Part shown: positions 32,729 through 52,911 of the stretch, piece by piece
Position numbering within the stretch: the stretch's first letter is position 1
How the letters are laid out: each line of letters opens with the position of its first letter
Virus record (IMG/VR): IMGVR_UViG_3300049491_000716
Span: 16,305-80,304 of that record
Length of the DNA stretch: 64,000 bases
Source of the DNA: a virus
Direction: 5' to 3' (one strand)
Made by a program: the position numbers and the translations under genes
The notes under the pieces: model-generated
The model's input: only the letters and a program-made list of their open reading frames with translations
Database searches by the model: none
What the model was told of the DNA's origin: nothing

Positions 32729-33330
32729 GCGAAACCTCGGCGGATCTTCACGGTGTCCAAGAAACAGGTGGCGCCCATCGGAATGGTGGTCAACGCGGCC
32801 TGACTTGAAGCCTCGCGATTCTTGTACAGGTGGCCGATCGTCAGCAGCAGCGCCACCTTGATGGACCGCGGCATCGGGTTGTCTTGCGGACTCTCGCCGG
32901 GCGCCGAGTAGCCGACGGCATAGAACACGCGGATGCCGTTGGTCTGCGTGCCGACGTCATCCGGCCACGTGGCATCCGGCGCCAGGATCACGCGCGCCGG
33001 CGTGCTGAAGGTGTCGAGTTGGTAGTCGGCGGCCGGCACCACGAGTTCAAGGCCGTCCTTGTCCAGGTAGGTGATGTAGGCAATGCCGATCACCGGGCCG
33101 TAGGGGAAGGTGATCTCGGCAGGGAAGGCGGTCAGCGCCATCTCGAGCGTGCGGCCGCCGAGCGCGAGCCCGGTGTACTGCTCTGCCCACTCTCGGGCGG
33201 CTGAGATGAACAGCTCCAGTAGCAAGTCGTCGGGGTGCGACGGCGGGCTGCCGAAGGCGTCGATCTTGCACTGCAGCCGCGCTTCTTCGAGCGATACAGG
33301 CTCGTAAGTCGGGGCGGGCAGATTGCTCAC
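32725..33330 (-). CDS. Head-tail connector (gp6-like)
   Basis: EPVSLEEARLQCKID...AAREWAEQYT...IGHLYKNRE. Confidence 0.88.
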   Translation of the reverse strand: MSNLPAPTYEPVSLEEARLQCKIDAFGSPPSHPDDLLLELFISAAREWAEQYTGLALGGRTLEMALTAFPAEITFPYGPVIGIAYITYLDKDGLELVVPAADYQLDTFSTPARVILAPDATWPDDVGTQTNGIRVFYAVGYSAPGESPQDNPMPRSIKVALLLTIGHLYKNREASSQAALTTIPMGATCFLDTVKIRRGFA

Positions 33331-34013
33331 AGGGTTTCCTTCAGCCAGATGTCATCGAACTCGTGTGGCGCCCAGTCCGGGAGGAACGGGCCGCCTTCTG
33401 TGAAGTGCGCGATTTGCGGAACCGCTGGCTTCGGCATCACGCCGACCAGCCAATTCCATTCGTAGGGCAACTCGCCGATTTCGCTGTCGTGTAGCCAGCA
33501 GAACTGGTGCAGGTCGATGCCGCGCGTGTGGTTGATGGCATCCAACGTCAGGCGGCGGTTGCCCGGGTGGCCCACGTTGAACAGCATCACGCTTGACCAA
33601 CCCTTGCGCTCGTAGGGCACCTGAGCCTGGCCATCCATCTTCTCGCCGGCGCGGAAGTCGGCGTAGTGCTTCACAACCTGCACGGCCTTCGTGTAGTCGG
33701 CCAGCGCGAAGAGTTTGGTCACGTCTCCGAGAAAGACGACGTCGCTGTCAACGAACAGCGCGAGGCCGTTCTGCGCGAGGATCGGCGTCAGAAATCGGCT
33801 GATCGCGAAGCCAGTTGAGCATGGCGCGTTGCTTGTCAGGTCGTACATGCTGCCGCGCAGATCGGTCGGGCGGCGCAGCAGGCCGCAGCGCTCCAGGTTG
33901 TCGCGGTTCAGCGGCGTGATGCTCACCGGGGCCTTCGTGCGGCGCAGCATGGACTTCACGGCCACGTCGTAGGCGCGCTGCTCGCGCGGCTCGTGGCCGA
34001 TGTAGACGCGCAT
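33327..34013 (-). CDS. GT-A glycosyltransferase (GT8/CDI-like)
   Basis: STGFAISRFL, FVDSD (DxD), WSSVMLFN, LPYEWNWLV, HFTEGGP. Confidence 0.8.
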   Translation of the reverse strand: MRVYIGHEPREQRAYDVAVKSMLRRTKAPVSITPLNRDNLERCGLLRRPTDLRGSMYDLTSNAPCSTGFAISRFLTPILAQNGLALFVDSDVVFLGDVTKLFALADYTKAVQVVKHYADFRAGEKMDGQAQVPYERKGWSSVMLFNVGHPGNRRLTLDAINHTRGIDLHQFCWLHDSEIGELPYEWNWLVGVMPKPAVPQIAHFTEGGPFLPDWAPHEFDDIWLKETL

Positions 34014-34015
34014 GG

Positions 34016-34222
34016 TCAAGACACCTTGCCGTATCGCCATTTCATTTCTTCAAAGGCAGCCTCTGGGTCGCCTCCGCTGTTCAGCCAGACTTCATTGATT
34101 TCTACAGCAGGTGCACCGAACGCCTCGCGGCACTTTGTGTAGAAGGATTTCGCGACCTTAATATTTTCATAGCCGCGGTCCGGCCGGCGAGCAAAGGCCA
34201 ATCCAATTTCAGTCAGGCTCAT
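34016..34222 (-). CDS. Hypothetical protein
   Basis: 68-aa ORF with GGGG RBS. Confidence 0.45.
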   Translation of the reverse strand: MSLTEIGLAFARRPDRGYENIKVAKSFYTKCREAFGAPAVEINEVWLNSGGDPEAAFEEMKWRYGKVS

Positions 34223-34237
34223 GGCGCCCCCTATTGA

Positions 34238-34888
34238 TCAATCGCAGGTCATCAGGTAGTCGCCGCTCATCTCCTTGCGCACCTTGTAGCCCAAGGATTG
34301 AAGATAGGGAACGGCGTCGGTGTCGCCGATGCCGTAGCGCACGGCGTGGCCCTTCTTCTGTTCGACGCAGATCACCGGCTTGCAGCGTGCGATGGTTTCC
34401 TCGGCGCCGCGGAGCACGAACAGTTCATGGCCTTCGGTGTCGATCTTGATCAGGTCCACTCGGCTCAGCGCGAAGCTGTCCAGCGTGTGCATCGGGATGT
34501 CGCCGTCGCCGTCCACGCGGCTGTCGCCTGAACTGGTCGGTTCGGTGCGGATGGCAACCATGCCTTCGTGATCACCCAGCGCGCAGGCGTGAAGCGTGAT
34601 GTTGTCGCAGGCAAGCGTGTTGGCCAAAAAGCACTCGCGATGCGCAGCCACCGGCTCGAAGGCGTGGACTTCGTCGAACTCGTGCGACAGGTTGAATGAC
34701 CACAGACCCACGTGGCCACCAACGTCGATCGCGACGCGCTTCTGTTTGCAGAGGCCCATCGCAGCCACCTGCTTCTGGCCTTGGTAACTCGCGCGACCGT
34801 TCAAGTGCATACGCACCTTCGGGTTGGCCATCCAGATGGGGAGGTGGGCTTCGCGATCGGGGAAATACCAGCCGTCAGTCTTCAGCAC
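34238..34888 (-). CDS. FkbM-family methyltransferase
   Basis: AIDVGGHVGLW, AFEP, IKIDTEGHELFVLRGA; likely GTG start at 34888. Confidence 0.88.
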   Translation of the reverse strand: MLKTDGWYFPDREAHLPIWMANPKVRMHLNGRASYQGQKQVAAMGLCKQKRVAIDVGGHVGLWSFNLSHEFDEVHAFEPVAAHRECFLANTLACDNITLHACALGDHEGMVAIRTEPTSSGDSRVDGDGDIPMHTLDSFALSRVDLIKIDTEGHELFVLRGAEETIARCKPVICVEQKKGHAVRYGIGDTDAVPYLQSLGYKVRKEMSGDYLMTCD

Positions 34889-35619
34889 AGAATCTGCTCC
34901 AGGTTTGTTTGAACTTCGTCGACCGTAATGGCCAGCATGGATGCGCGGCAACCAGCGCAGGGAACTCGAGAGCCGCAGGCGCCGCCGGCGTGCCGCAGGT
35001 TGCGGTGCTGCGGATAGCCGGTGTAGTCGGGGTGGATGAACTCCGAAAAGAGCACAACCGCTGGGATGTTCAATGCGGCCGCCGCGTGACCGAGGCCGCC
35101 CTCGGCGCCAACGAATGCCCGGCTGACCGCCAGCACCGCCATGGCATGCCGGAAGGTCGGCGTCTCGACGAACTGCACGCCATTCAAGCGCTCGGTGGCT
35201 GGCTTGCCGATCTGAATGCACTGGCCGGCGTTGCGGTCCGCGAGTTCCTGCCAGCGCTCCCAGATCCAGGCCTTGTTGGAGCCCGGAACCTTGGTGCATG
35301 GTTCGATCAGGATGTGGCCGGCGTGCGGCGCCGCCCACGTTCGCTCGCCATGGCTCAGGTAGACCTCGCCGGGCTCGATCTGCCATCGCTTCCAAGTCCA
35401 CGCCGTGGCTGACTTCGCCGCGATGTAGGGCCGCACGCCGCCACCGTTGATCAACTTCACGGCGCCGCGGTCGCCGGCTCGGGCGATGCGCGGGTTGTTC
35501 TCGAAGACCTCAGACCACTGGTGCCGTCCGTCCCTGCCGAGCACCATCACCTTGCGTTTCGTCTCGACATTGAGTTGCCGAACCTGTGCAGTGCACATCA
35601 GCCAATCGCCGACGCCCAT
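34882..35619 (-). CDS. GT9-like (heptosyltransferase-fold) glycosyltransferase
   Basis: MGVGD, NNPRI, NK-x-W...WQEL, FVGAEGGLGHAAAALNIPAVVLF, CAGC...ITVDEV. Confidence 0.8.
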   Translation of the reverse strand: MGVGDWLMCTAQVRQLNVETKRKVMVLGRDGRHQWSEVFENNPRIARAGDRGAVKLINGGGVRPYIAAKSATAWTWKRWQIEPGEVYLSHGERTWAAPHAGHILIEPCTKVPGSNKAWIWERWQELADRNAGQCIQIGKPATERLNGVQFVETPTFRHAMAVLAVSRAFVGAEGGLGHAAAALNIPAVVLFSEFIHPDYTGYPQHRNLRHAGGACGSRVPCAGCRASMLAITVDEVQTNLEQILC

Positions 35620-35626
35620 GACAGCC

Positions 35627-36430
35627 TCAGGCGCCGCGGCGGGTGTACTTGCGCTTCGGGCGCTCCTGCTCTTGGCTTGTGGCGTCAGGCAGCAGGTCTT
35701 GCTGGGGTTCGGTGACTTCGGGTTGCAGGGTCACCGGTTCGGCATCATGCATCGTCGTCACGTCCAGCGCCACCGGTTCCGCGGCGGCATCCTGAAGCAT
35801 GGCGTTGAAGCCCGGCATCGTGTCGAAAACTTCGGTTTCCGTAGACACGTCGGCTTCGACGTGTACAGTTTTCGGAGTTTCCTGAACACGTCGGCGGAAG
35901 TAGCCCTGCCATTCGCCGCGCGGGCCCTCGCCTTCGGTTTCCAGGTCGAAGCCTTCGCTGGCCATGACAGCCAGGATGTCGTGCGGCACGTTCTCGCTGC
36001 GCAGGTCGCGGATCACGGGGCCGTAGGGCGGCAGGCGGATGACCACAAGGTCATCACAAGCCGCGGCCAACATGGAGCACACAGCGCTCGGGTTCTTGAG
36101 TTTGTGAAGCGACGCGAGCATCACGATGATGTCGTATCGCTCGTCTTCCGGGTGAGCATAGTGGTTCAGATTCGCCTGTTGAAATTCGCAAGGCAAGTCG
36201 CCGGCCAACGTTTTTGCAACCGGTATGTACCAATCCACGATCTCCAAGCCCTTGCAGAACTTGGCCCCAGCTTTCGCCAACTCCATGGAGATCAGGCCCT
36301 CTCCGGCGCCAACGTCAAGAACGGTTTTCCCGGGAACTTCTTTGAGCAACTGACCCAAGCCGGTCATCTGCTCATCAATCGTCCTGTCTCCGTCTTGCAC
36401 GCCTTCGATCTTGAACCAGCCTTTTTTCAT
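35627..36430 (-). CDS. Class I SAM-dependent methyltransferase with acidic tail
   Basis: GKTVLDVGAGEG, YDIIVMLASLHKL; GGAG RBS. Confidence 0.8.
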   Translation of the reverse strand: MKKGWFKIEGVQDGDRTIDEQMTGLGQLLKEVPGKTVLDVGAGEGLISMELAKAGAKFCKGLEIVDWYIPVAKTLAGDLPCEFQQANLNHYAHPEDERYDIIVMLASLHKLKNPSAVCSMLAAACDDLVVIRLPPYGPVIRDLRSENVPHDILAVMASEGFDLETEGEGPRGEWQGYFRRRVQETPKTVHVEADVSTETEVFDTMPGFNAMLQDAAAEPVALDVTTMHDAEPVTLQPEVTEPQQDLLPDATSQEQERPKRKYTRRGA

Positions 36431-36520
36431 TGTTTGCTCCACTAAAATAGGCGAGCCCCTGAAGCGTGGCAACGCGACAGGGGCCCTGATCACACCTTGA
36501 CCTGCTTCATAGGCCACAGC

Positions 36521-37039
36521 ATGACTGTTGAAAATTCTCTCACAGCGGAACGTCTCCGCGAACTTCTTCACTACGACCCGGCCATCGGCGTCTTCAAGCG
36601 CATTCTTGAACTAAGTCGAAGGCGTCGCGACAAGGTCGGCAGCCTAACTTGGAACAAGTACCTGCTGATCTGTGTTGATGGTAAGCAGTACCGTGCTCAT
36701 CGATTGGCTTGGCTCTACATGACTGGATCTTGGCCAACCAGCGACATTGACCACAAGAATCGGATCAAGACGGACAACCGATGGACGAATCTTCGTCAGG
36801 CCACCAGAAAGCAAAACATGGAGAACACTGGCCTGCAGAAAAATAACAAATCAGGCATTTGTGGCGTGTATTGGGATACCAACCGAGAGCGATGGCACGC
36901 GATGATTCAACACAACAAAAGGATGATCCACATCGGACGGTTCGTGGCGTTTGAGGATGCAGTGAAGGCTCGCAAGGACGCTGAAAACCTCTACTTCACT
37001 CATCACTTGAAAGAGCCGACCACGCAAAACCAGATCTGA
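36521..37039 (+). CDS. HNH homing endonuclease with AP2 domain (antisense to the late operon)
   Basis: YRAHRLAWLY, IDHKNRIKTDNRWTNL, NNKSGICGVYW. Confidence 0.9.
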   Translation: MTVENSLTAERLRELLHYDPAIGVFKRILELSRRRRDKVGSLTWNKYLLICVDGKQYRAHRLAWLYMTGSWPTSDIDHKNRIKTDNRWTNLRQATRKQNMENTGLQKNNKSGICGVYWDTNRERWHAMIQHNKRMIHIGRFVAFEDAVKARKDAENLYFTHHLKEPTTQNQI

Positions 37040-37754
37040 ACTCGTCAAGGCTCCACTGCTGGTCGGCCAGTTGGTTCGCCCACTCGTGGCGGCCATCAGG
37101 CGTCGGCAGGTTTTCGATCTGCTCAAGCGTGCCGCTCATGGGTCGCGCTGAGCAATCATCCGATTCAACAACGACTGGTATGCCCGCCAGCAGCGCAGTG
37201 ACGGCTGCGGCTGACGACCAAGTGACCAGCGCATGTGCGCCGACCAAGTCTGCAGCCAGCGTTGCAGAGGACTTGCTCTTGTTTGCCGACCACGGCCGGA
37301 CACGGATCTCGCGGTCAGTGACCGTCTTGAGTCGCTGCAGCGTCTGTTCAGTCCAGTCAAATTCGACTCCAGCCAAGGTCTTCATGAAGTGGGCCGACTG
37401 GGGGCACACGACGATGTGGCTGCCGCTGCTGCGCCACGGCTTGATCTCAATGCCGAGCGCGGCAAAGCGCGTGCCGTCACTGGCGCCCTCGGCGATCGGC
37501 TGCAACATGTTCTTGGCGACGCGGAAGTAGGCTTCGCGAGCCGAGTCGAACAGGCTGCCGTCCGAGTAGAAGATGGTGCGTCCGTCTTGCGATCCCTGCC
37601 ACGCCTCCAGGTTGCCGGCCGTCACGCCGTAGAAGAACGATCCGCCTTCGCTGCGCAGCTTGTAGGCAATCTGGCCATTGCAACCACGGGCAAAGGCCAA
37701 GCAGATGTCGGCACTCTTCTGCTTGTGCGGAACCGGGTAGGCGGTCACGATCAC
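36996..37754 (-). CDS. Capsule_synth/KpsS-like GT-B domain protein
   Basis: IVVCPQ, IRVRP, ALVTWSSAAAVTALLAGIPVV. Confidence 0.6.
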   Translation of the reverse strand: MIVTAYPVPHKQKSADICLAFARGCNGQIAYKLRSEGGSFFYGVTAGNLEAWQGSQDGRTIFYSDGSLFDSAREAYFRVAKNMLQPIAEGASDGTRFAALGIEIKPWRSSGSHIVVCPQSAHFMKTLAGVEFDWTEQTLQRLKTVTDREIRVRPWSANKSKSSATLAADLVGAHALVTWSSAAAVTALLAGIPVVVESDDCSARPMSGTLEQIENLPTPDGRHEWANQLADQQWSLDEFRSGFAWSALSSDE

Positions 37755-38530
37755 GATGCCAACTTTCTCAGGATCCTGGCGAAAGGCTCGCCGCTCTCAA
37801 TGTCGGCCACGCTCCATTGTGCGTGGGCCATGCGCGAGAAGGCATCAAGCCGTGACTGATCGTCACGCTTCAACTCGGCCAGCCCGTCAGACCAGCGCGT
37901 CGCGGCGCCACCGCAGATCCAGTGCGGCGCCGAGTAGACCACCGGCACACCCTCGATCAGTGCCTTTACCCCGCTGGCGCTGCTCCACACGAAGCACGCC
38001 TCGCAGCCTGCCAGTTCGGTGTCAAGCGTCATCTTTGGCGGGAAGCGGCCCGGGTGGCGGCGAATGCGAACCTGAAGGCCCATTCCCCGCAGTTGCACCG
38101 TAGTGCGGTCTTCCCATCCGTGCGGGCTGGCCATCTCGGTGGAGCCGACGCCGCGCTGACCACATACCAAGACGTGCTTTCCCTTCTGCCAAGGCTTGAA
38201 GTTGATACCGAGAAGCGAGAGGCGGTCATCTTGTTCCACGGGGAACCAGCCGCTTCCGTTGTGGCCGCCGACGGCGATGGCATAGTTCGGCCGGCCTTCG
38301 CTGTCTTGGCCGTAGTAGCCGTTCTCGCACACCACCACGGTGCCGCCCTTCAGTTCCCAGTTGCGGGCCAACTCCTGTTCGGCACCCTGCCGATTCCAGA
38401 GGATGAGCATGTCGCGCTCGTCCTTCGGGTCACCGGCAACAGTGACGGCGTAGCCGAGGCGGCGGAGCCCGGCTTCGAATGCGTCGCGTCGGTATTCCGG
38501 CTTGAACCGGATATTGCAGAGAGCGATCAA
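37751..38530 (-). CDS. Capsule_synth/KpsS-like GT-B domain protein (paralog)
   Basis: CENGY, VLVCGQ, IRRHP, VWSSASGVKALIEGVPV, AQWS...GE. Confidence 0.6.
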   Translation of the reverse strand: MIALCNIRFKPEYRRDAFEAGLRRLGYAVTVAGDPKDERDMLILWNRQGAEQELARNWELKGGTVVVCENGYYGQDSEGRPNYAIAVGGHNGSGWFPVEQDDRLSLLGINFKPWQKGKHVLVCGQRGVGSTEMASPHGWEDRTTVQLRGMGLQVRIRRHPGRFPPKMTLDTELAGCEACFVWSSASGVKALIEGVPVVYSAPHWICGGAATRWSDGLAELKRDDQSRLDAFSRMAHAQWSVADIESGEPFARILRKLAS

Positions 38531-39270
38531 GCCAGGGCTTCCTTCAAGTCGGCGAGTCGGAAGCACGTCAGGCGCGTTGACCGCGTGCAGTTCACCACCT
38601 CCACGCCGGCCTTCTTGATGTCGTGCGCCAGCGGGTCAAATGCCTGAATCCAGAGTTCGAAGAGGTAGTTCGGGATGCCTGTCAGCGGCTTCGGGTGATC
38701 GCTGTGCCAGTGCTTGCCGTGCATGTCGAAGCCCAGCAGGATGATCTTCTTGGCGCCGGCCTGATACGCGAGGTTGATCGCCTGGTAACCGCCGTTGCGG
38801 CCTTGGTTGATCACGCCGGGCGTCTTGTTCAGGCCTGAACCCGGCCGGCTTTCGATGTGCTTGACGCCTTCGTGGGCGACATTCTTGTCTTGTGTCCAGA
38901 ACTCGGATTTGCTGACGCGGCGCGCTTCGCCGATGTACTGGTTCCACCACGGCGCATCGCATGCGTAGAGGACGTCCGCCCACGGCGCCAGCATGAAGGT
39001 GGTGTTGATCGCGATGACCCGGCGGCCGCCCGCGGCTTCTCGCCACTCGCGCACCAGCTCGCAGTCGGCCAATTTCAGGCTCTGCCCGCTGGCCAGAATC
39101 ACGACTGTGTCGCCGGCCCACTCGAGGCCGCGCCACGCGAAGCCGCCAAACGGGCGGGCTTCACCCGTCGCGATCATGGCTTCTGCCGTGGTCTGATCAG
39201 CCTCAAAGGTGGACCCTTCAAAGATGGTGCCGACGGCATGGCCGATCGGCTTCAGCGCGATCATCTTCAT
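38527..39270 (-). CDS. DUF115/MptE-like (Maf/GT-related) protein
   Basis: VVILASGQSL, VIAIN, ADVLYACD, GGYQAINLAY-GAKKIILLGFDM. Confidence 0.7.
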   Translation of the reverse strand: MKMIALKPIGHAVGTIFEGSTFEADQTTAEAMIATGEARPFGGFAWRGLEWAGDTVVILASGQSLKLADCELVREWREAAGGRRVIAINTTFMLAPWADVLYACDAPWWNQYIGEARRVSKSEFWTQDKNVAHEGVKHIESRPGSGLNKTPGVINQGRNGGYQAINLAYQAGAKKIILLGFDMHGKHWHSDHPKPLTGIPNYLFELWIQAFDPLAHDIKKAGVEVVNCTRSTRLTCFRLADLKEALA

Positions 39271-44460: not shown

Positions 44461-44943
44461 ATGGAATGGGGAAGGCATTACAGACACTCAATCGAAAGCG
44501 CCCGCGCTCGATTCATGTCCCGCATTGAAGTTGAACCGTCGGGTTGCTGGCGCTGGATGGGCGCGATCGGAAGCCATAAACGCTATGGGTCTGTTCACAT
44601 CGCCGGCAAGAGCTGGCTTGCGCATCGCGGCGCATGGTTCTTGTTCAAGGGAGATCCTGGCGCCTTGAATGTTTGCCATACCTGCGACAACGGGATGTGC
44701 GTCAATCCAGATCATCTGTTCCTTGGAACGCAATTGGACAATGTCCATGACATGGAAGCCAAGCAGCGGTCCAAGCATCCTTCTGGCGCGGCTCACGGCA
44801 GGTCAAAGTTAACTGCGACCGATGTCGAAGACATCCGCCGCTGCTGCACGACAGAGTCCATTCTGTCTATGGCTACCAGATTCAAGGTATCAAAACCAAC
44901 CATAGCCAGAATCGTGAAGGGTGTTGGCTGGGTCACCAAGTAG
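44461..44943 (+). CDS. HNH homing endonuclease (His-Cys box) with C-terminal HTH, antisense
   Basis: CWRWMG, AHRGAW, VCHTCDNGMCVNPDHLFLGTQLDN. Confidence 0.9.
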   Translation: MEWGRHYRHSIESARARFMSRIEVEPSGCWRWMGAIGSHKRYGSVHIAGKSWLAHRGAWFLFKGDPGALNVCHTCDNGMCVNPDHLFLGTQLDNVHDMEAKQRSKHPSGAAHGRSKLTATDVEDIRRCCTTESILSMATRFKVSKPTIARIVKGVGWVTK

Positions 44944-45658
44944 TGTCCGGGGGGCCAAATTTCCCTTCGAGATCAAAGTGTCCAATTTGCACGCCGCAGT
45001 CGATCGCGCAACGATAGCCATGCCGCTGAGCATCGGACCAGAAGTAGAGGTCTTGCGTGGCAATGCCTCCCTCGGTCTGAGTCTTAAACCATGGTCTTCG
45101 TAGGTCGCCATCTTTGAACATGTCAAGGCGCCACAGGTTGAATCCCATGCCGGTTCCCCAGCATTCGACCAACTGGCCGGCAATCGGCGGCTGCGGACGG
45201 AAATTCATCACGGGGTCGCGACGGTCCCCCCAAATTTGGGCTTGGCCGCCCTCGCCCTTCGTAAAATAAATTCCGCCGATGCAGTCGTATTCTGGGTGAG
45301 CCTCCATCTGCGCAAGCAGTTTGATGAGCCCATCCGGGGGAACGATCGAATCGTGCTCGATCGTCAAGATGTACTTGAACTTCGACAACTCTGGATGCGC
45401 GAGGATGGCTTCGATGGCGAGAGAGTATGCCTCTCCCACCTCGACGCCAATGGCCCACATGCGATGCAGCGCATTGTTCGGCGGCGAGTAGAGATTCATC
45501 CAACTGGCGACTGCCTTGGTAGGCACCGTGCCGCCGGCTGGGATGATGATGATCGTGTCCAGCTTCTTCCACGCCGACGTCTCTTTGACGCGAGCGATGG
45601 ATGCTTCGAGGTCTGCGTTGTGCTTGCCGTAGTCGACGGCGACGAACTGGGGACGCAT
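44933..45658 (-). CDS. GT-A (GT2-like) glycosyltransferase
   Basis: YILTIEHD, IGGIYF, CWGTGMGFNL, PWF...QDLYF. Confidence 0.7.
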   Translation of the reverse strand: MRPQFVAVDYGKHNADLEASIARVKETSAWKKLDTIIIIPAGGTVPTKAVASWMNLYSPPNNALHRMWAIGVEVGEAYSLAIEAILAHPELSKFKYILTIEHDSIVPPDGLIKLLAQMEAHPEYDCIGGIYFTKGEGGQAQIWGDRRDPVMNFRPQPPIAGQLVECWGTGMGFNLWRLDMFKDGDLRRPWFKTQTEGGIATQDLYFWSDAQRHGYRCAIDCGVQIGHFDLEGKFGPPDTTW

Positions 45659-45707
45659 GCTTAGGGATCTCCTAATTTGCTGGCAACAGGTAGTCTAGCG
45701 AAGCCCG

Positions 45708-46628
45708 TCAGGCGCGGGCCCAACCAAGAATCGCGCTTGGCAAGACGGTCAACAGCGCGCTTCCTGAAGACGTTGTTCCGACATCATCGGAGACATCGCA
45801 TGTGATCAAAGAGCCGTTGTCGCCAAACACCGTTGTTGGCGCATAGGTGCTGCTATCTGTTCCGACATTGCTGCCATCGTCTTTCCATTGATAGTGCAGG
45901 GCGCCAGTGCCGGTTGCAGAGACTGTGAATGTTGCAACCTGCCCGGCATATACAACCTGAGGGCTTGGATTGCCAGTTATCACCGGGCCAGCGGCCGGCA
46001 GTGAAACCACAAATCCACCGAAGCCAGCCGCCCCCGTACCTGTGAGCCTTGTAGCGGTGGCAGTCAGCGTGCCTGTTGCACCAGCCGATATGTTGTCTTG
46101 CGTCCAGCCGGTCAGGTTGGACCAGATGCCATCGGCAACGTCTTGGCGGCTCGTAAACCCAGAGAGCCCACTGAATCCCCAAGTGTCCGCGTTGGTGTTC
46201 TGGTCAAGGCCGCAGCCGTAGAACAGATCCGAACCTCCCGATGCAGTGACGCCTGTCAGCGCGCATGAAATGGGCGTTGCATTGGCGCTGATGTTGGTGG
46301 TGACTGCCACCACTGCTGTCGCTGCGTTATCTCGACCGGAAAAAGCAAATAGTTGCAAGATGCCTGAATTGGCCGCGACCGAAACAAATGCATAGGAATC
46401 TGAACCTGTGGCATCCTTCAGTTCGAACAGTTGAACCGTGTGCCCATCGGGGCCAGAAAGATCAGCGTTCCCGATCTGCGCCCATCCCGATGGCGGCGTA
46501 ATAACGCGGATCGTGTCTTGAACCAGAACCGCAAGCAATCGATCATGCGCGACAACGCCAGCCGGAGCCGTGCCAGTAAAAGCCGTCGTTCCGTTGAACG
46601 ATGTTGACGATGACGAGCGAAACGCCAT
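45708..46628 (-). CDS. Structural protein with a C-terminal Ig-like domain
   Basis: PVITGNP...ATFTVSATG...YQWK...TCDVS; S/T-rich N-domain. Confidence 0.7.
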   Translation of the reverse strand: MAFRSSSSTSFNGTTAFTGTAPAGVVAHDRLLAVLVQDTIRVITPPSGWAQIGNADLSGPDGHTVQLFELKDATGSDSYAFVSVAANSGILQLFAFSGRDNAATAVVAVTTNISANATPISCALTGVTASGGSDLFYGCGLDQNTNADTWGFSGLSGFTSRQDVADGIWSNLTGWTQDNISAGATGTLTATATRLTGTGAAGFGGFVVSLPAAGPVITGNPSPQVVYAGQVATFTVSATGTGALHYQWKDDGSNVGTDSSTYAPTTVFGDNGSLITCDVSDDVGTTSSGSALLTVLPSAILGWARA

Positions 46629-47002
46629 TACGTCGTCTCCACCACGATGCTTGCCGCCGTGAAGTTCTGCAAGGTCTGCGCGTCACACTTGATGTGAGTA
46701 GGCACGATCAAGGCGCCCGCCGCGGTGCGCTGCCATGGGGACTCGACGGTCGTGAACGGGACCGGCGTTGTCCCATCCTTTTCAAGAAAGACGCCGCCGA
46801 CCAGTGACACGCTGAACTGCCGAACCCACGTCGCTTGGTTGTCAAAACTGAACCATGGCGTTGCGTTGAGCAGAGCCCCTGAGGGAAGACTGCTGCGGCT
46901 GATTCGAACGCGCAGCCCATTTCCGGCTGGTGTAGCCCATGGGCCAAGCGTTTGGTTGCCGACGACAAGCGCCTGAGCCGTCAGCGTCACGAGAACGGTC
47001 AT
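46628..47002 (-). CDS. Hypothetical structural protein
   Basis: Coupled beta-rich ORF. Confidence 0.6.
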   Translation of the reverse strand: MTVLVTLTAQALVVGNQTLGPWATPAGNGLRVRISRSSLPSGALLNATPWFSFDNQATWVRQFSVSLVGGVFLEKDGTTPVPFTTVESPWQRTAAGALIVPTHIKCDAQTLQNFTAASIVVETT

Positions 47003-47006
47003 AGCA

Positions 47007-48116
47007 TCAGGCGTTGTTGATCATCTGCACGTAGGGCGCGACATGCGACGCCGACGAGCTGATCTGCGACAGCGCGATGCTTGCCGTGGTGGCGCCGGCA
47101 TTGCTGTACGAGCCCAAGCCCTGCTGCCACTGATTCGATGCGCTGTTGGCGATGCCGAACAAGCCGATCGTGTTGTTCGGCTGGCTCATGCCGATGTGGC
47201 TGTGCACGATGCGGGCCGCGCTCAAGTTCGCAGTGCCCTGCGTGGTCTGCGTCGTTGAAACGCCGTAGGCCATGAACATCAAGCCTGCCTGTCGCGAAGC
47301 CGCGAACTTCGTATCCCACATCTTCATGCCGCTCAGCGCCGTCATGTGAGTTGTGCTCACCTGCATCGTGCTGTTCGTGGCGGCGTAGCTGAAGCTCAGC
47401 GATGACGTGCCGTTGCTGACCGGGTAGGTCAGGCCGTGCGTCACGCTGATGTTGTTCGTCGTGTTCTGGCTGACGTTGATTGAGAAGCGGAAGCTCACCG
47501 AACTTGACGAGAAAGACTGCAGGCTCATCGAACTCGCGCCTGTTCCCAGACTGTACAAGACGATGTTGTGGGTTTCCTGCTGGTTGTAGCTGTACGCGCT
47601 GTTGCCGGTGGATGCGAACGACGTCGAGGCCAAGCTCACGGTGTGCGCCATGCGCATGAAGCCGGCCGAGAACTGCTCCCTGACCTGCATCGGGAACACC
47701 ACCGACGTACTCTGCTGAACGGTCTGCGATTGGCTGTTCAGCAGATACGGGACAGCGTTTGCAAAGTAGCTCAGCAGCGGTTGGTAGATGCTGATCGTGT
47801 TGCCGGCCGTGCTGACGGCAATGCCGGATGCGCCGACCAGCGATGAGCTGGCAAGTGCCGACACAATCATGGTTTGATCGGTGGCCGACAACGTGACGTT
47901 GTTGCCGGCTTGGTAGACGAGGTTCGTGCCGCTCAGCGTGCTGGCACCAGCGGTGTTGCCGCTGATCGTCATGAACTGGTTGTGCGCGCTGTTCCAGTCA
48001 CTCGGACGGACCAGCGCGGTAGCCAACGTGGTCGTGGTGGCGCCGAGACTGTTGAAGACCGTGACGGTTCCCGTGAAGTCGGCAACTGAGTTGGACTTGA
48101 CGTGGGAGACTGCCAT
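47007..48116 (-). CDS. Ser/Thr-rich structural (fiber-like) protein
   Basis: LVRPSDWNSAH motif; very high S/T/N content, few charged residues. Confidence 0.7.
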   Translation of the reverse strand: MAVSHVKSNSVADFTGTVTVFNSLGATTTTLATALVRPSDWNSAHNQFMTISGNTAGASTLSGTNLVYQAGNNVTLSATDQTMIVSALASSSLVGASGIAVSTAGNTISIYQPLLSYFANAVPYLLNSQSQTVQQSTSVVFPMQVREQFSAGFMRMAHTVSLASTSFASTGNSAYSYNQQETHNIVLYSLGTGASSMSLQSFSSSSVSFRFSINVSQNTTNNISVTHGLTYPVSNGTSSLSFSYAATNSTMQVSTTHMTALSGMKMWDTKFAASRQAGLMFMAYGVSTTQTTQGTANLSAARIVHSHIGMSQPNNTIGLFGIANSASNQWQQGLGSYSNAGATTASIALSQISSSASHVAPYVQMINNA

Positions 48117-48159
48117 GTGTTTCTCGGTTCCGGGGTTCGACGACTACGTTGGCCTTGGC

Positions 48160-48513
48160 TCAGGGAGCCGGGGTCGCGTCGGGCACCAGTGCGTCGACGG
48201 TGCCGGCGGCGGCCGCGACGGAAGCCGATGCGGCCTTGGCGGCATCGAAGGCTGCCTGCATGGCCGGCGAGACATCGTTCAGACTGGCGATCACGACTTC
48301 GAGGTCAGCGATCTTCTGGATCAGACCTGCGGTTTCGGTGCCGACCTTGGTGATCTGCGTGGTTGCAGCGGTCAGTTGAGCGGTGACTTCCGTCAGGCCT
48401 TGGGCGAGAGCGTCTTGGGACATGGTGATTTCCTTGAGTAGTTGAAGAACGGGCTCGAGACCCGCGATGGAGAACGTGATGCGGTGCTCAACGATGAAGT
48501 TGGGTTCGGTCAT
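48160..48513 (-). CDS. Hypothetical coiled-coil protein
   Basis: Coupled ORF. Confidence 0.6.
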   Translation of the reverse strand: MTEPNFIVEHRITFSIAGLEPVLQLLKEITMSQDALAQGLTEVTAQLTAATTQITKVGTETAGLIQKIADLEVVIASLNDVSPAMQAAFDAAKAASASVAAAAGTVDALVPDATPAP

Positions 48514-49181
48514 TGTTTCACGCAAGCCGTGACTTCGGTTTTCACGGCTCCGGCGATTGCGCAGTACGTGGTAGTGCCGACAACGGCTTTCGCCGAGGCG
48601 CAGTCACAGATGGCGCCCTTGACAGCCTTGCGGCCCGTGACGCCGGTGAGCTTGCCTCCAGCGTAGGTGAAGATGGTTCCCGCCGTCGGCGTGACCCACG
48701 TTCCGGCCGGCGGAGTGATCGGCGTCGGTTTGTAGACTTCGCACCTGGCGGCCGGCTTCACGACGTGCGGCACCATGTTCGACGGCGGGTTGCCGGCAGA
48801 CAGGCATGCCGCGTAGATGAGCGACTTCCAGTCGTACTCGTCTTGTGACCCGGCGGCCGGGGTGATGGTGGCGCTGGTAACCACCGAGTTCAGCGCCAAC
48901 AACTTGTCCGGCGCAGACAGCACACCAGCCATCACGGCCAGCGGGTCGCTGATCGTATTCTGATACTTCTTGAGAACGGCGAACGACTGCCAACGCCACA
49001 TGTTTGTGGTGTTGGGCTCGGGGCACCAGAAGTACACCCAGCGCCCAAGTGGCGTGGCTTCGCTGACCTGAATCGTGCCGGCTTCATTCGGCGACGACTC
49101 GGTCTTTGGCGCGCACATGAACTGCGCGTGGGCTGCTGCCGCCGAGGCAAACAGCACCAGGGCGGTGAGCAGGTTTCGCAT
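48510..49181 (-). CDS. Secreted Cys-rich hypothetical protein
   Basis: Signal peptide ...AAAHA; eight Cys. Confidence 0.65.
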   Translation of the reverse strand: MRNLLTALVLFASAAAAHAQFMCAPKTESSPNEAGTIQVSEATPLGRWVYFWCPEPNTTNMWRWQSFAVLKKYQNTISDPLAVMAGVLSAPDKLLALNSVVTSATITPAAGSQDEYDWKSLIYAACLSAGNPPSNMVPHVVKPAARCEVYKPTPITPPAGTWVTPTAGTIFTYAGGKLTGVTGRKAVKGAICDCASAKAVVGTTTYCAIAGAVKTEVTACVKQ

Positions 49182-49183
49182 TT

Positions 49184-49741
49184 TCAGTCCTGACTGGAAT
49201 ACTGGTTTGGCAGATGCCTGAAGCAAGTGCACGAGATGCAATGCTGTTGCTCTTGGACGCGGGCGCCGCAGGGCTGCGCTTTCTTCCAAAGCTCAAGATT
49301 TTCAGGCCGGTTGTCGGTTTTGATGCCGTTTTTGTGATGGACGTTCTCGCTGCGCAGAAGGGGCCTGCCAAGCAACCGTTCCATCACGAGGCGGTGTTCT
49401 AGCACGTAGCGACGGGTCGTGCCCGCAAGAGATGGGTGGTCTGGCGCATTGGTCATGATGTAACCGCTGCGGTTCATGAGCGTGCCGCCCTTCCACCTAC
49501 CACCCTTCTCACCTTTGGTCTTGCCGGGATTTTCGGCGTACATCTTCAGCAGCGCACAACTACGTGTGCAGTGAATCGCACGCTGAGTTCTTGACCTGTA
49601 TGGGGGCAAGAATTCCTCTTTGCACCACACACATATTTGTGGTGCTATACGCGTGCGGAGACCCGCGTGCTTTTGGCCGTAGTGATACCACCACTGACCA
49701 TCAGCATCCTGCTTGAATCTCTCTGTGTCGAACGGCTTCAT
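49184..49741 (-). CDS. HNH homing endonuclease
   Basis: CVWC...HCTRSC, WKGG, YVLEHRLVME, VHHKNGIKTDNRPENLEL. Confidence 0.88.
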   Translation of the reverse strand: MKPFDTERFKQDADGQWWYHYGQKHAGLRTRIAPQICVWCKEEFLPPYRSRTQRAIHCTRSCALLKMYAENPGKTKGEKGGRWKGGTLMNRSGYIMTNAPDHPSLAGTTRRYVLEHRLVMERLLGRPLLRSENVHHKNGIKTDNRPENLELWKKAQPCGARVQEQQHCISCTCFRHLPNQYSSQD

Positions 49742-49783
49742 TGGCACTCCTTGTGGGAGCGCCAATTATGCCAGCGTGAATCA

Positions 49784-50218
49784 TCACGAAAGGGTAAACA
49801 CCCCCAAAGAATTCATTTGCACAGTCAGCGTGTTGCCGTTGGTGACCGTGAACTGCGCGGTCGACAGTTTCGACCAGCACAGGCACTTGGCGCCCGACGT
49901 GCCGATCACGGCGAACTTGACGTTGTTCAACGCCGAGCCGCTGGCCGTGAAGACCAGGTCGGTGGAGTCGAACTTGTAGGACTTGGCCGAAGCGCCGACC
50001 GTCCAGGCCAAGCCGCCGAGAGCACGGCCGCCGGCGACGTAGCCACCACGCGCGCTGATTTCATTGGTGATGGAAGCGAACGTCGAGAGCGTGAACGTGG
50101 ATGCGTTGCTCGCGCTCGTCGTGAGTTTCATCTTCAAGGCGGTCGTGCCGAGAACGATGGTGCCGTTTCCGATGTACTTTTTGCTTTTGTTGTAGATTTG
50201 CCACGCTGATGCTGCCAT
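49784..50218 (-). CDS. Structural protein (putative fiber/appendage base)
   Basis: NEIS-GGYVAGG, TVTNGNTLTVQ...GVFTL, a common phage structural pattern. Confidence 0.6.
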   Translation of the reverse strand: MAASAWQIYNKSKKYIGNGTIVLGTTALKMKLTTSASNASTFTLSTFASITNEISARGGYVAGGRALGGLAWTVGASAKSYKFDSTDLVFTASGSALNNVKFAVIGTSGAKCLCWSKLSTAQFTVTNGNTLTVQMNSLGVFTLS

Positions 50219-50219
50219 T

Positions 50220-50864
50220 TTAGAACCTCATGAGTTTGAGTAAAGGTTGGGTCGCAACCACCAACGTTTTGTCGGGGTGCAGTTCTCGGAAAAGTCGATG
50301 CTTGTTCTGGCTTGCTTCGTTGAGCCAACCTTTGACTTCCCAATAAGCATCAATCTCGGGAAGGTAGAAATCTGGCAAGTAGGTGCACACGCCGAGGTCG
50401 AATCGGTGCCGCTCGTATTCCCACTTGATGCCGTCACGATCAAAGACTTGCGCAAGGCGCGCTTCCCATGACGATCTGAACGTGACTCCGGCGTATTGAA
50501 CGCGAGGCGTGTGCTGCGGCGATCGGCCCCAATGTGGGCTGTTGCGGCCGGTGAGCTTTTCGCGTTGAGCCTGCGTCCAAGATGTGCCACGCATACGCGA
50601 TGCAGTGGCTGCCCGCTCAGCCTCGGATTGCCGATGACTGAATTTGCCTTTCTTGGCTGCGCTCATCGCGGCGCGAGCGGCATCAGACTTCGGCTTTCCC
50701 AGCGCTGCAGCACTCATCTTGGCCTTTGTAGCCTCGGATGTGATCTTCCCGCGATGCGCAGCACCGATCTTTGCCTTCGTCTCTTCGGAGAGTTTCTTGC
50801 CACGATTCGCCGCGGCCAATTTGGCGCGGTGCTCGGCGGACTTTGGCACGCCAGCGAGCGCCAT
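50220..50864 (-). CDS. NUMOD3 + PD-(D/E)xK homing endonuclease
   Basis: SEETKAKI repeats; FRSSWE, YLPDFYL, EVKG. Confidence 0.85.
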   Translation of the reverse strand: MALAGVPKSAEHRAKLAAANRGKKLSEETKAKIGAAHRGKITSEATKAKMSAAALGKPKSDAARAAMSAAKKGKFSHRQSEAERAATASRMRGTSWTQAQREKLTGRNSPHWGRSPQHTPRVQYAGVTFRSSWEARLAQVFDRDGIKWEYERHRFDLGVCTYLPDFYLPEIDAYWEVKGWLNEASQNKHRLFRELHPDKTLVVATQPLLKLMRF

Positions 50865-52306
50865 TATTTGGACTCCGCGATGTCGGAGAGATCCGCCCCG
50901 GTCTTCAAGATGTGCGAGATGAGGCCGTCGCCATGGACTTGCAGTTCCACCTCATCACCGAGAAACTTCACGAGATCCATGAACTCGGTGGCCTGCGAAA
51001 GCATCCACGGCGTGCACGTGAAAGTGCGGCCGCCGCAAGTCACGGGCATCGTGAACTCGCTGTCGTTCTCGGTCTGCTGATAGGCGTGGTGATTTCCGGT
51101 TTCGCTCATGCACGAGTCGAAGCCGAAGACATGCATGCGACGGAAGCCCAACATCATCAGCAGCGGGATGGCGCGAAGCACCACCGTGCTGCCGCCAGGG
51201 ATCGGGTAGAAAGCGCCGGCTGCCTCGCGGATCAGCGCTTCGGCCTCTTCGTTCACGCCGGAGTGCCAGAGCAGCGTGCGGTCGCGCGGCAGGCCGGCCA
51301 GCGTGCTCGGGTGAACCTGCGAGGCGATCAGGTACTTGCAGTCGGCCTGCACGTTGCGCGTGAAGCGCGCGTTGAACTCGCGGGCGTCAAGCACGATCTG
51401 CGCGCTGACCTTGATCCAATTTTCGAGCGCCCAGTCGTAGGCGCCGTTGACCGTGACAATCGCGCACCCGGCTTCGCGCAGCGCCTTAATGTCTTCGACG
51501 TGGGCCGCCATGCTCGGACCGCCAGCGAGCAGCGCGATCTCGCGGTCTTGCCGGTCGTGCGGCAGCGCGTGACCCCAGCCCGCCAAGATGTTGGACTTGA
51601 CCTGCGCGTCAACCACGGCTTCGTCCGTGTTGATGCGGCCGATTTTGACGATGTCCTTGGCGTTTTTCCACGACGTGCAGTAGATCGCGCAGGCGCCTTC
51701 GAAGTCCTGCGACCAATGCACGACGGCGCCGAGCGCCTTCAGTTGATCCACCCACCAGGCCAGCGGCTGCACGGTCAGGTGCAGTTGCTCGCCGATGCGC
51801 TCGCCCATGACGTCGGGCTCGGTCGCGATGCCGAAGAAGACGTGGTTGGCTGAGTCGAGGATGTTGGCCAGCACCGTCGCCACGTCTTGCGGCGGGATGT
51901 GTTCCATGACGTCGCAGCAGTAGCCGTAGGCGGCCTTGGCGGCGATCGGCTTGGTGAGGTCGCCGACCTCGAAGCTGATGCGGCTGGCCTGAGTGATGCA
52001 GGATTCCGCGACTTCGTGGTCCAAGCAGTTGGCCGCGAAGTCAATCATCTTGACGCGCATGTTGCCGAACAGGCAGAGCATCCATGCGCCGCGGCCGGTG
52101 CCGCAGCCGAAGTCGATGGCCTCGCTGTCGCGCGGCGGCTTGGCCTGCTGCAGGAACAACTGCGCCCAGTGCTCGCCGGGCGAGACCGTGCGGTAGTCGG
52201 GGATGTCCCACATCCGCTGGTACTTGCTGAGTTCGGGGTTCACGGCCTCAATCGGCTTGATGAGAACGTTCGGCGCGTGGCCGACTGCGCCTGCTTGAGT
52301 GATCAT
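50864..52306 (-). CDS. SAM methyltransferase fused to a DUF115/MptE-like (Maf-related) domain
   Basis: IDFGCGTG, CCDVMEHI; then LLAGGPSM, VTVNG, GGSTVVLRA...LGFRRMHVFGFDSC. Confidence 0.8.
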   Translation of the reverse strand: MITQAGAVGHAPNVLIKPIEAVNPELSKYQRMWDIPDYRTVSPGEHWAQLFLQQAKPPRDSEAIDFGCGTGRGAWMLCLFGNMRVKMIDFAANCLDHEVAESCITQASRISFEVGDLTKPIAAKAAYGYCCDVMEHIPPQDVATVLANILDSANHVFFGIATEPDVMGERIGEQLHLTVQPLAWWVDQLKALGAVVHWSQDFEGACAIYCTSWKNAKDIVKIGRINTDEAVVDAQVKSNILAGWGHALPHDRQDREIALLAGGPSMAAHVEDIKALREAGCAIVTVNGAYDWALENWIKVSAQIVLDAREFNARFTRNVQADCKYLIASQVHPSTLAGLPRDRTLLWHSGVNEEAEALIREAAGAFYPIPGGSTVVLRAIPLLMMLGFRRMHVFGFDSCMSETGNHHAYQQTENDSEFTMPVTCGGRTFTCTPWMLSQATEFMDLVKFLGDEVELQVHGDGLISHILKTGADLSDIAESK

Positions 52307-52341
52307 CTGGGTGCTCCAGGTGGTTTGAAGATTGGCTGGCG

Positions 52342-52911
52342 CTATGCCCAGCCGCCGGGGAAATACGAGTTGCAGGATCCGCTGCCGGATCCACCGCCAC
52401 CGCCACCACCGCCGGCGCCGGCGCGACCGCGGGGACCGGCGGGACCGCGAAGGTCAACCCACTCGCCCCATTCGCCGCCCGGCAGTTCGAAGCGCAACTT
52501 CGTGCCGTCCCATTCGTGCAGCGGGATGGCGCCGGTGTCGCCCTTAATGCCGTCGGGCCCCATGAAGCCGCGCTCGCCGCGCGGGCCACGTTTGCCTTCG
52601 ATGCCATCGGCGCCGTTGCGGCCATTGATGCCAGCGTCGCCCCTCTCGCCGCGGGCGCCGCGCAGGAAGGCAAGCCATTCCGCCTCGGTGCCTTCAAATC
52701 CAGCGGTCTGCGCAATCTCAAAGGCAGACTTTCCGTTCAGGCCGTCAATGCCGCGGTCGCCGCGGATGCCGGCGCCATCCTTGCCGTTGATGCCGTCGAG
52801 GCCATCTCTGCCGTCAACGCCATCGCGGCCATCTCTGCCATCTCGACCGGGACGAGCTTTAGCGATGATCTCTTCGATCAGCGCCGCCGTTTCAGGCGCC
52901 AGAGCACTCAC
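52342..52911 (-). CDS. Collagen-like protein
   Basis: Gly-X-Y repeats; GKSAFEIA...GFEGTEAEWL motif shared with 39267-40940. Confidence 0.75.
   Translation of the reverse strand: MSALAPETAALIEEIIAKARPGRDGRDGRDGVDGRDGLDGINGKDGAGIRGDRGIDGLNGKSAFEIAQTAGFEGTEAEWLAFLRGARGERGDAGINGRNGADGIEGKRGPRGERGFMGPDGIKGDTGAIPLHEWDGTKLRFELPGGEWGEWVDLRGPAGPRGRAGAGGGGGGGGSGSGSCNSYFPGGWA

Follow-up and report, generated by a model that had tools for sequence, protein, structure and literature searches.

Two portable modules of predicted glycosyltransferase and methyltransferase genes between the portal and head-tail connector genes of a phage

We describe a block of 22 open reading frames (ORFs), rich in genes for predicted sugar-modifying enzymes, which occupies positions 33327-52917 of a 64,000-nucleotide stretch of viral DNA (hereafter the window, meaning the whole stretch that was analysed) and lies between the genes for the portal protein and the head-tail connector. 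The window is the right-hand 64 kb (positions 16,305 to 80,304) of the linear 80,304-bp IMG/VR virus record IMGVR_UViG_3300049491_000716; a blastn comparison with annotated phage records revealed no near DNA relative, coverage being merely 5-8%, and the hosts are probably Gram-negative. Examination of the block indicates that it is a composite of two portable gene modules, here termed A and B, a gene pair for a GT2-like glycosyltransferase (GT) and a methyltransferase, and selfish insertions. We propose, with a probability of roughly one half, that the enzymes attach methylated glycans to proteins that make up the appendages of the phage itself. Modification of virion proteins fits module A well, and module B by extension only; the acceptor, the donors, the order of the steps and the location on the particle are those that we infer from the comparisons set out below.

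The block is bounded upstream by the portal gene (52892-54331, minus strand; PF04860, 8.9e-77) and downstream by a gene for a gp6-like head-tail connector (32725-33330, minus strand; PF05135, 2.1e-6). A first-pass annotation of the window, made from the sequence without database searches, had counted about ten sugar-modifying-type genes in this interval and described them as co-oriented, with overlapping stop and start codons. Both statements stand: all 22 ORFs lie on the minus strand, as do all block features given below, stop and start codons overlap at about nine junctions, and the evidence from Pfam, PHROG, profile and fold searches places sugar-modifying-type domains in exactly ten genes, each of them co-oriented with the virion genes. 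Together these ten genes encode seven transferase-like and four methyltransferase domains, with uneven support (six strong, two moderate and two weak). The other genes code for collagen-like, immunoglobulin-like (Ig), Ser/Thr-rich and 31-repeat proteins, two homing endonucleases, one secreted protein and further ORFs, and the interleaving of the first four kinds of protein with the enzymes, likewise part of the earlier description, is borne out by domain matches, composition and the repeat count. What has to be given up is the notion of a single system inserted in the head operon: a synteny search resolved it into two portable modules and additional genes, and modules A and B are found independently of each other in most contigs. 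Three larger intergenic gaps are present, namely 44406-44932 (527 bp), approximately 36431-36995 (about 565 bp) and 34041-34237 (197 bp). The first two break an otherwise tight operon and are both lower in G+C (0.575-0.583).

Module A, as predicted from its genes, is composed of a Maf-like DUF115 transferase, usually accompanied by an S-adenosylmethionine (SAM) methyltransferase, a Gp80-like virion protein of 144 amino acids (aa) and a long protein built of 22/24-aa repeats. The enzyme of the window is a 480-aa fusion (50864-52306) of an N-terminal class I SAM methyltransferase (PF13649, 1e-6) to a Maf-like DUF115 glycosyltransferase domain, for which support is strong (PF01973, 3.3e-14; 53.4 bits against a cut-off of 34.6). 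The DUF115 profile of this family (A3) matches the Maf structure 5MU5 with an E-value of 2.4e-11 across the catalytic core, chain residues 254-429, and the GxGPS, GxD and H...Q positions align between the two. Relatives of the fusion were recovered from 68 IMG/VR loci, where the methyltransferase and DUF115 domains are fused in both orders or encoded by separate adjacent genes. In 27 of these 68 loci, found via the enzyme, the 144-aa gene is directly downstream, with the large repeat protein encoded within a few kb. Two reverse searches seeded with members of the 144-aa family yielded 15 and 16 loci, and in all 31 of them a DUF115 gene lies directly upstream of the 144-aa gene; homologs of the repeat protein follow directly downstream in most. 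At two loci (L026 and L011) the trio is situated between the capsid gene and the connector gene in canonical HK97-type gene order. Dozens of unrelated phage contigs show this strict linkage of the DUF115 gene to two virion-type genes, and the fusion was seen in only 6 contigs of metagenome-assembled genomes (MAGs).

A second phage group (loci L021, L028-L032, L035, L037, L041, L042, L048, L060 and L061) carries DUF115-methyltransferase fusions with the reverse domain order, which come after conserved genes encoding proteins of about 320 aa and then about 163 aa. By eye the latter look like a capsid and decoration pair; Pfam searches of the neighbouring genes at these loci gave no matches, and a capsid context is not claimed.

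The small partner in module A is a Ser/Thr-rich beta-sandwich virion protein (49784-50218; phrog_644, 1.7e-15). Its AlphaFold2 model (predicted local distance difference test, pLDDT, 75.6) is a beta-sandwich, with VIA Z values of 11.9 for a baseplate chain of KP1, 9.0 for the GP4 'Fiber I and fiber-tail-adaptor' chain 8jou_a, 8.5 for the Bxb1 tail tip and 7.2 for the Sf14 neck. The nearest named ESM Atlas cluster, PF23140 Gp80 of the GP4 'fiber I gp80' family, offers a further lead. The modelled fold thus resembles those of small fibre, neck or tail-tip adaptor proteins. In light of this resemblance a neck or tail location is equally possible, and the 'capsid fibers' that the first-pass annotation had named as the site of the glycan can no longer be singled out. 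The family is a large one, its profile matching 2,813 clusters at 50% identity in a library of 1.84 billion proteins; the 144-aa protein as a single query found no match in bacterial genome contigs, and the distant family member P0270 as query found no viral locus. The fibre of the module is an 848-aa protein (41274-43820) in which 31 repeats, each 22 or 24 aa long (PxxGxLxLTGxxP...), are combined with a C-terminal domain of about 102 aa, and a stand-alone paralog of this domain (103 aa, 40954-41265; BLASTP, 49% identity over 102 aa, 2e-31) is encoded next to it. Two copies of a PxxGxLxxTGxP motif, as in the 848-aa repeat protein, also occur at about residues 186-225 of a 429-aa tail protein (22894-24183) encoded after the ORF in the tape-measure position.

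Module B is a seven-gene enzyme cassette in the order DUF115 enzyme, first and second Kdo-transferase-like protein (Kdo, 3-deoxy-D-manno-octulosonic acid), methyltransferase, often a second small methyltransferase, GT9, FkbM and GT8-like protein. A profile of the Kdo-transferase-like family detected it in 65 IMG/VR contigs, which makes at least 65 loci, with the seven genes, taken in cassette order, present in 60, 65, 65, 54, 51, 55 and 54 of the 65 at 35-70% identity. The second small methyltransferase that usually follows gene 4 in other cassettes is missing from the phage of the window.

Gene 1 (38527-39270) encodes a DUF115/sialyltransferase-like transferase of 247 aa (phrog_4603 'alpha-2,3-sialyltransferase', 1.1e-47), and its strongly supported assignment comes from alignment of its family profile (A5) with the Maf-like profile A3 of module A (97.9%, 5e-13). 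The family profile is required for this match, as the single sequence reaches a probability of 10% against the Maf-like profile; PF01973 scores just 19.2 bits (cut-off 34.6), and the best sequence match in the PDB is a weak one to CstII of GT42 (E 0.013). Gene 2 (37751-38566) encodes a beta-Kdo-transferase-like GT-B protein of 271 aa, which was identified by fold search only, since the protein had no match in Pfam or NCBIfam and neither the single sequence nor the family profile matched any PDB sequence. Its AlphaFold2 model (pLDDT 93.6, 38 homologs) retrieved KpsC, KrkA or WbbB in each of the top 26 Foldseek rows (best E 1.1e-6), and VIA Z values of 11.6, 11.5, 11.4 and 9.3 over 210-230 residues of KpsC, WbbB and KrkA exceed those of generic GT-B matches. 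The invariant motifs of the family are HPG (H171-P172-G173), WSS (W194-S195-S196) and QRG, of which the His-Pro and Ser-Ser motifs recall what we take to be the conserved motifs of beta-Kdo transferases. Gene 3 (36996-37754) is a diverged paralog of gene 2 (hhalign against profile A4, 99.4%, 3.6e-21; strong support) that lacks the His-Pro motif and has RPWS aligned at the family's RHPG position; a PDB sequence search with it also gave nothing. These two genes are the pair that the first-pass annotation had called KpsS-like GT-B enzymes, a label upheld by the fold of gene 2 and the paralogy of gene 3.

Genes 4 to 7 complete the cassette. Gene 4 (35627-36571) encodes a strongly supported class I SAM methyltransferase (PF13489, 4.1e-9; PF13649, 1.2e-8), whose true start is probably at 36430-36493. 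It ends in an acidic low-complexity tail of about 140 aa with a terminal basic patch, and a promoter-like site (36472-36444, minus strand) precedes the gene. Gene 5 (34882-35619) encodes a 245-aa protein of the GT9 heptosyltransferase family with moderate support (PF01075, 1.8e-7; 31.2 bits against a cut-off of 22, the alignment covering mainly the C-terminal half); weaker matches are to the NCBIfam heptosyltransferase I and II models and to WaaF (1PSW, E 0.022). A role for gene 5 as a TibC/Aah-type protein heptosyltransferase on AIDA-like repeats was considered and is not supported, there being no TibC match and only that WaaF match among PDB sequences. Gene 6 (34238-34891) is an FkbM-family methyltransferase with strong support (PF05050, 1.7e-18, 67.7 bits against 22.7; phrog_8156, 6.9e-30). 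Gene 7 (33327-34040), the stop codon of which overlaps the start of the connector gene, is a weakly supported GT8-like GT-A candidate (PF01501, 1.9e-3, sub-cut-off; phrog_28018, 3.5e-47); its ESM Atlas neighbours are viral, and one cluster, 43% of whose members have PF01501, is reached at a TM score of 0.91, which is a lead only.

The Kdo-transferase-like family is phage-specific in the sense of being almost restricted to phage contigs: its profile matched 1 of 400 sampled bacterial genomes, and that weakly, and of 325 homologs of gene 2, none among the 120 listed has a Pfam domain or a functional name. ESM Atlas clusters for the families of the block are 70-100% viral. With respect to genomic context, the cassette lies among structural genes at 23 of the 65 loci, among replication genes at 26 and in unassigned surroundings at 16. 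At the 23 structural loci the cassette either has the portal and a collagen-like gene ahead of it and the connector behind it, the arrangement of the window, or separates the connector from the head completion gene. At the replication-context loci L095, L103-L105, L108-L110, L117, L119, L120, L124-L126, L128, L130, L133, L135-L138, L140, L146, L147 and L155 the cassette forms the 3' end of a replication operon with a PolA-like gene, an SNF2 helicase, DUF2800 and DUF6378. The genomes concerned are about 52-60 kb long, some with direct terminal repeats, such as the roughly 60-kb genomes of L146 and L147, and in them very large genes (900-1,500 aa) converge with the cassette.

In the reading that we favour, module A would be a fibre with its own dedicated modifying enzyme: by analogy with the action of Maf on flagellin, the Maf-like transferase may take a sugar of the ulosonic acid type from a CMP-activated donor of the host and attach it to Ser/Thr residues of the fibre proteins, in the cytoplasm and ahead of assembly. 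Module B would be a portable glycan-building cassette of late or middle cytoplasmic enzymes, which could start or extend a methylated oligosaccharide of the Kdo, heptose or hexose type. Searches of the phage turned up no sugar-activating gene, and module B would therefore draw its donors from the host pools that otherwise supply lipopolysaccharide (LPS) synthesis; the CMP-sugar cytidylyltransferase PF02348 was found neither in the 80-kb record nor in four complete cassette-bearing genomes, a 118-kb relative included. No transmembrane-grade hydrophobic segment occurs in any enzyme of the block (the Wzx and Wzy families were not searched for by name), and no tyrosine integrase was found in the record. 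Of the families searched for in the record, whether for nucleotide sugars, integrases or DNA precursors, none turned up; the first-pass annotation had likewise seen no membrane GT or nucleotide-sugar synthesis gene. The two modules are also related to each other: homology links gene 1 of module B with the Maf-like domain of module A, and in each module a DUF115 enzyme is accompanied by a methyltransferase of one and the same family. As for the central idea of the first-pass annotation, glycosylation of virions by cytoplasmic enzymes, it gains from the solubility and co-orientation of the enzymes, the Maf group of the DUF115 domain and the linkage to virion genes, but position in the head operon is no argument where module B is concerned. 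A bolder version, which we consider doubtful, is that in phages of Gram-negative bacteria the two modules jointly build an LPS-inner-core-like methylated Kdo-heptose-hexose glycan on the fibre proteins, initiated by Maf-like transferases and fed by host CMP-Kdo and ADP-heptose, that is, a widespread and unrecognised 'phage glycocalyx'; if true, it might have roles in masking, adhesion or particle stability.

Several points weigh against this proposal. Everything said about the acceptor rests on inference, and modification of virion proteins is a prediction from the genes. The alignment to Maf is limited to the central catalytic domain, and the flagellin-binding domains of Maf are absent from the phage fusion; with its N-terminal methyltransferase the latter measures 480 aa as against 666 aa for 5MU5, and neither the N- nor the C-terminal flanking domain of Maf is present. 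The families of module B (Kdo transferase-like, GT9 and GT8) are classic LPS and capsule families. At the 26 replication-context loci the cassette follows genes for an SNF2 helicase (2.6e-17) and a PolA-like protein (a weak match, 8.8e-5) and converges on a gene for a GH19 endolysin, and its position in the head operon is therefore weak evidence for a virion target of module B. Two complete 60-kb genomes of this kind have, beyond the cassette, no detectable homology to the phage of the window, fibre genes included; since they share nothing else detectable, the cassette is a portable unit, and since module B occurs without the fibre genes, it does not need these acceptors nearby. Two of the transferase assignments made by the first-pass annotation also fall short of their Pfam cut-offs, and GT9 alone of the three families lies above: for the GT8-like gene 7, PF01501 reaches 18.3 bits against 24.3 over 38 residues around the DxD motif, and for the GT2-like protein (44933-45658) PF00535 reaches 19.0 bits against 23.3 and PF13632 21.2 against 27. 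In the preprint of Pyle et al. (10.1101/2023.12.21.572611), phage GT-A and GT-B enzymes related to those of LPS synthesis are reported to build mono- to trisaccharides of hexose, heptose and Kdo on 5-hydroxymethylcytosine (5hmC). Finally, CheckV puts the record at 68% completeness, so that the absences reported for it are those of a contig about 68% complete.

Of the alternatives, remodelling of the host envelope fares best, and we consider it unlikely. Under this view the targets of the cassette are lipid-linked intermediates of the LPS core, O-antigen or capsule, reached from the cytoplasmic side of the inner membrane and given, for example, a Kdo or methyl cap or extra core sugars, and the altered cell surface would lead to superinfection exclusion or spare the progeny from adsorbing to debris; alternatively, the cassette might merely drain CMP-Kdo and ADP-heptose. 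KpsC, WbbB and KrkA, the best structural matches of gene 2, do act on lipid-linked glycans, and the families GT9 and GT8 belong to LPS-core synthesis. Module B is portable, 26 contigs having it alongside middle or replication genes, and the block codes for a secreted protein. Sequestration of Kdo and heptose is itself discussed as a route to superinfection exclusion in the preprint of Pyle et al. (10.1101/2023.12.21.572611). Against these points, neither a membrane protein nor a flippase-like segment nor an integrase was found. The cassette families are almost absent from bacterial genomes (1 of the 400 sampled, with the fusion in 6 MAG contigs), and the cassette is therefore not a common prophage conversion module. 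Known seroconversion modules are small, having one to three genes and expression signals of their own, whereas minus-strand promoter-like and terminator-like sites in the block show no excess over shuffled expectation; the same scan led us to reject a reading of these genes as morons with promoters of their own. The features of lysogenic O-antigen conversion, namely Gtr/Wzy/Oac-type membrane components and a temperate life style, are not seen here, Wzx and Wzy having gone unsearched by name. Envelope remodelling also leaves the strict linkage of DUF115 to two virion-type genes unexplained.

It is less probable still that the block has no unity at all, being an assembly of unrelated accessory genes (morons, homing endonucleases and fibre genes) gathered at a permissive site of the late operon, with enzymes directed to several unrelated targets. 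Two homing endonucleases and a secreted protein are indeed interleaved, the G+C content dips at 36-38 kb and 44-46 kb of the window, the three intergenic gaps range from 197 bp to about 565 bp, and modules A and B are independent in most contigs. A close relative (L092) further has no match to the repeat protein and has the methyltransferase and collagen-like genes adjacent where the window has it. Such a mosaic does not account for the gene order within each module, which is kept at 35-70% identity across dozens of contigs and points to functional units, or for the pairing, in both modules, of a DUF115-type transferase with the same methyltransferase family.

The remaining alternative is that module B glycosylates and methylates a modified base in the phage DNA as protection against restriction, in the manner of the clusters of Pyle et al. 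It became serious because of the reported placement of Kdo and heptose on 5hmC by phage LPS-type transferases; in that preprint (10.1101/2023.12.21.572611), a GT8-like enzyme is reported as a secondary transferase in DNA-modifying clusters, which are also reported to adjoin structural genes. In 26 contigs module B comes behind genes for a polymerase and a helicase. The routes documented there (10.1101/2023.12.21.572611) start from a thymidylate-synthase homolog (ThyS) or from a C5 methyltransferase with a TET-like oxygenase, and the 5-hydroxycytosine pathway likewise starts from those enzymes (PMC13326640). Searches of the record of the window for ThyS, Tet/JBP and C5 methyltransferase were all negative, and the three are also absent from five replication-context genomes (93-100% complete) with the cassette; the Tet/JBP negative is weak because that search had no positive control. 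Counting those five genomes, ThyS was looked for in ten phage records other than that of the window and is absent from nine of them, including the complete 118-kb closest relative, which is the contig behind L092, and three other structural-context contigs, the one positive being record G413, where it lies about 30 kb from the cassette. The methyltransferases of the block are generic class I and FkbM enzymes and not of DNA methyltransferase families. Modification of DNA, a reading raised on the replication-gene context, is thus lowered by these negative searches to the least probable of the three.

Apart from the two modules, the block contains several proteins that could serve as glycan acceptors or fibres. 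Candidate acceptors have Ser+Thr contents of 20-29% and 4-10% charged residues. The most extreme is a Ser/Thr-rich (29%), almost uncharged (4%) protein of 369 aa (47007-48116, assigned on composition), a candidate acceptor or fibre, which has no Pfam or PHROG match and an 81% identical homolog in L092. Adjacent to it are genes for a 124-aa protein with 21% Ser+Thr (46628-47002, composition) and for an Ala-rich protein of 121 aa (48160-48525) with sub-threshold Pfam matches only. A 306-aa protein (45708-46628) has a C-terminal Ig-like domain (PF13927, 2.6e-6, sub-cut-off; phrog_3995 'tail protein', 4e-11) and homologs in L001 and L092. At the upstream edge, a collagen-like protein of 191 aa (52342-52917; PF01391, 1.1e-11), whose gene overlaps the stop codon of the portal gene, matches PHROGs labelled as collagen-like tail or fibre proteins and has a homolog after the portal in L001. 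Directly before module B, a 557-aa protein (39267-40940) combines collagen-like and KDG-repeat regions with a conserved C-terminal domain (phrog_1289, 2.3e-65; phrog_2271, 3.2e-46), and a homolog precedes the cassette in 16 of the 65 module B loci. Both PHROGs matching its C-terminal half are labelled 'portal protein', the match to phrog_2271 falling at positions 694-856 of 859; either some portals bear this domain as a C-terminal extension or the PHROG labels are wrong. Its last 70 residues contain, by eye, a candidate CBM5/12-type sugar-binding motif.

The GT2-like protein is a weakly supported GT-A candidate (PF13632, 2.8e-4; PF00535, 1.4e-3, both sub-cut-off), with a weak match to SpsA; like gene 7 it had no significant PDB sequence match. 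It is paired with a class I SAM methyltransferase of 191 aa (43830-44405; PF08241, 24 bits against 21.2; phrog_6636, 9.6e-9; moderate support), and the pair recurs in the close relative L092, there adjacent without a gap. Among the insertions, a homing endonuclease with NUMOD3 and endonuclease I-like domains (50220-50864; PF07460, 1.8e-10; PF05367, 4e-7) lies between the module A enzyme and the 144-aa gene, a site that is filled in L007 and L008 as well and empty in most loci. The second is an HNH homing endonuclease (49184-49765; PF13392, 4.2e-9). With a GIY-YIG endonuclease gene at 54775-55569, the late operon holds three homing endonucleases of different families. The gene directly after that for the HNH enzyme encodes a Cys-rich protein (48510-49181) without family match in Pfam or PHROG, whose hydrophobic N-terminal peak suggests a signal-peptide-like segment, apparently of the Sec type; its start is probably the ATG at 49181, which has a Shine-Dalgarno-like sequence. 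One weak homolog follows the cassette in L098. Neither this protein nor the two endonucleases of the block figured in the first-pass annotation.

The late genes around the block run on the minus strand in the order prohead-protease/major-capsid fusion (55588-57588; PF04586 and PF05065), GIY-YIG endonuclease, small ORF, portal, the 19.6-kb block and connector. Past the connector come the genes for the head completion and tail tube proteins and then an ORF of 1,894 aa, which occupies the place usual for a tape-measure gene. The protease-capsid fusion thus lies upstream of the portal, the reverse of the usual portal-protease-capsid order, and this arrangement is common to the relatives L001, L007, L049, L098, L100 and L102.

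In the literature that we found, glycosylation of phage virions is documented for mycobacteriophages only, and no description of Maf-like enzymes in phages or of either module was encountered. The block suggests a different and much larger enzyme repertoire, in modules that are conserved, portable and common in metagenomic phages. If the acceptor is a virion protein, phage glycobiology would extend beyond the actinobacteriophages, with a bearing on stability, adsorption, immune recognition and engineering; if it is LPS or DNA, the cassette would be a new multi-enzyme system for surface remodelling or anti-restriction. The block is best regarded as a further form of glycosylation encoded by viruses, although part of it may well serve another purpose.

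The closest parallel to module A is the Maf enzymes, which O-glycosylate Ser/Thr residues of flagellin and can transfer the CMP-activated ulosonic acids Kdo and N-acetylneuraminic acid (Neu5Ac), according to the abstract of a preprint (10.1101/2020.06.03.131540). The phage enzyme shares with them a homologous central catalytic domain, is likewise soluble and cytoplasmic, and is encoded next to a Ser/Thr-rich filament-type protein. It differs in having a SAM methyltransferase in place of the Maf N-terminal domain and in lacking the terminal domains of Maf, and its activity is a predicted one. Moreover, no flagellin or nonulosonic-acid synthesis gene is near, its partners being the Gp80-like protein and the repeat fibre. 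The DNA-modifying clusters of Pyle et al. (10.1101/2023.12.21.572611) resemble module B in being multi-transferase sets related to LPS enzymes, in using host Kdo, heptose and hexose donors and in lying near structural or replication genes. Their defining feature is a ThyS homolog nearby, or else a C5 methyltransferase together with 5mYOX, and in the sections of the preprint consulted neither a Maf-like nor a KpsC-like fold is mentioned (10.1101/2023.12.21.572611). With KpsC, KpsS, WbbB and KrkA, the retaining beta-Kdo transferases of GT107 and GT99, gene 2 shares its fold over the whole protein. The phage proteins differ in length, the matched chains having about 50-120 residues more, and they have no match at the sequence level; the His-Pro motif is missing from one of the two copies, and the family is almost confined to phage contigs.

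Decoration of virions by proteins of the kinds interleaved here has precedents, in that head modules encode collagen-like trimers (SPP1 gp12) and Ig-domain proteins (T4 Hoc) which decorate the capsid; both kinds are encoded here, the likeness being one of domain type only. In the chlorovirus PBCV-1, virus-encoded soluble glycosyltransferases and a methyltransferase domain build a methylated capsid glycan in the cytoplasm, independently of the host machinery. That virus is a eukaryotic one, its glycans are N-linked to the major capsid protein, and its enzymes are unrelated to those described here. The system of the mycobacteriophages is said to involve few glycosyltransferases. There, the proposal is that glycosyltransferases encoded by the phage modify its own virion proteins with host sugar donors; the system belongs to actinobacteriophages, and its targets are the C-termini of capsid and tail-tube subunits (PMC12619734, citing Freeman et al. 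2023). By comparison, the block described here has different enzyme families (Maf-like, Kdo-transferase-like and GT9), dedicated fibre genes and probably Gram-negative hosts.

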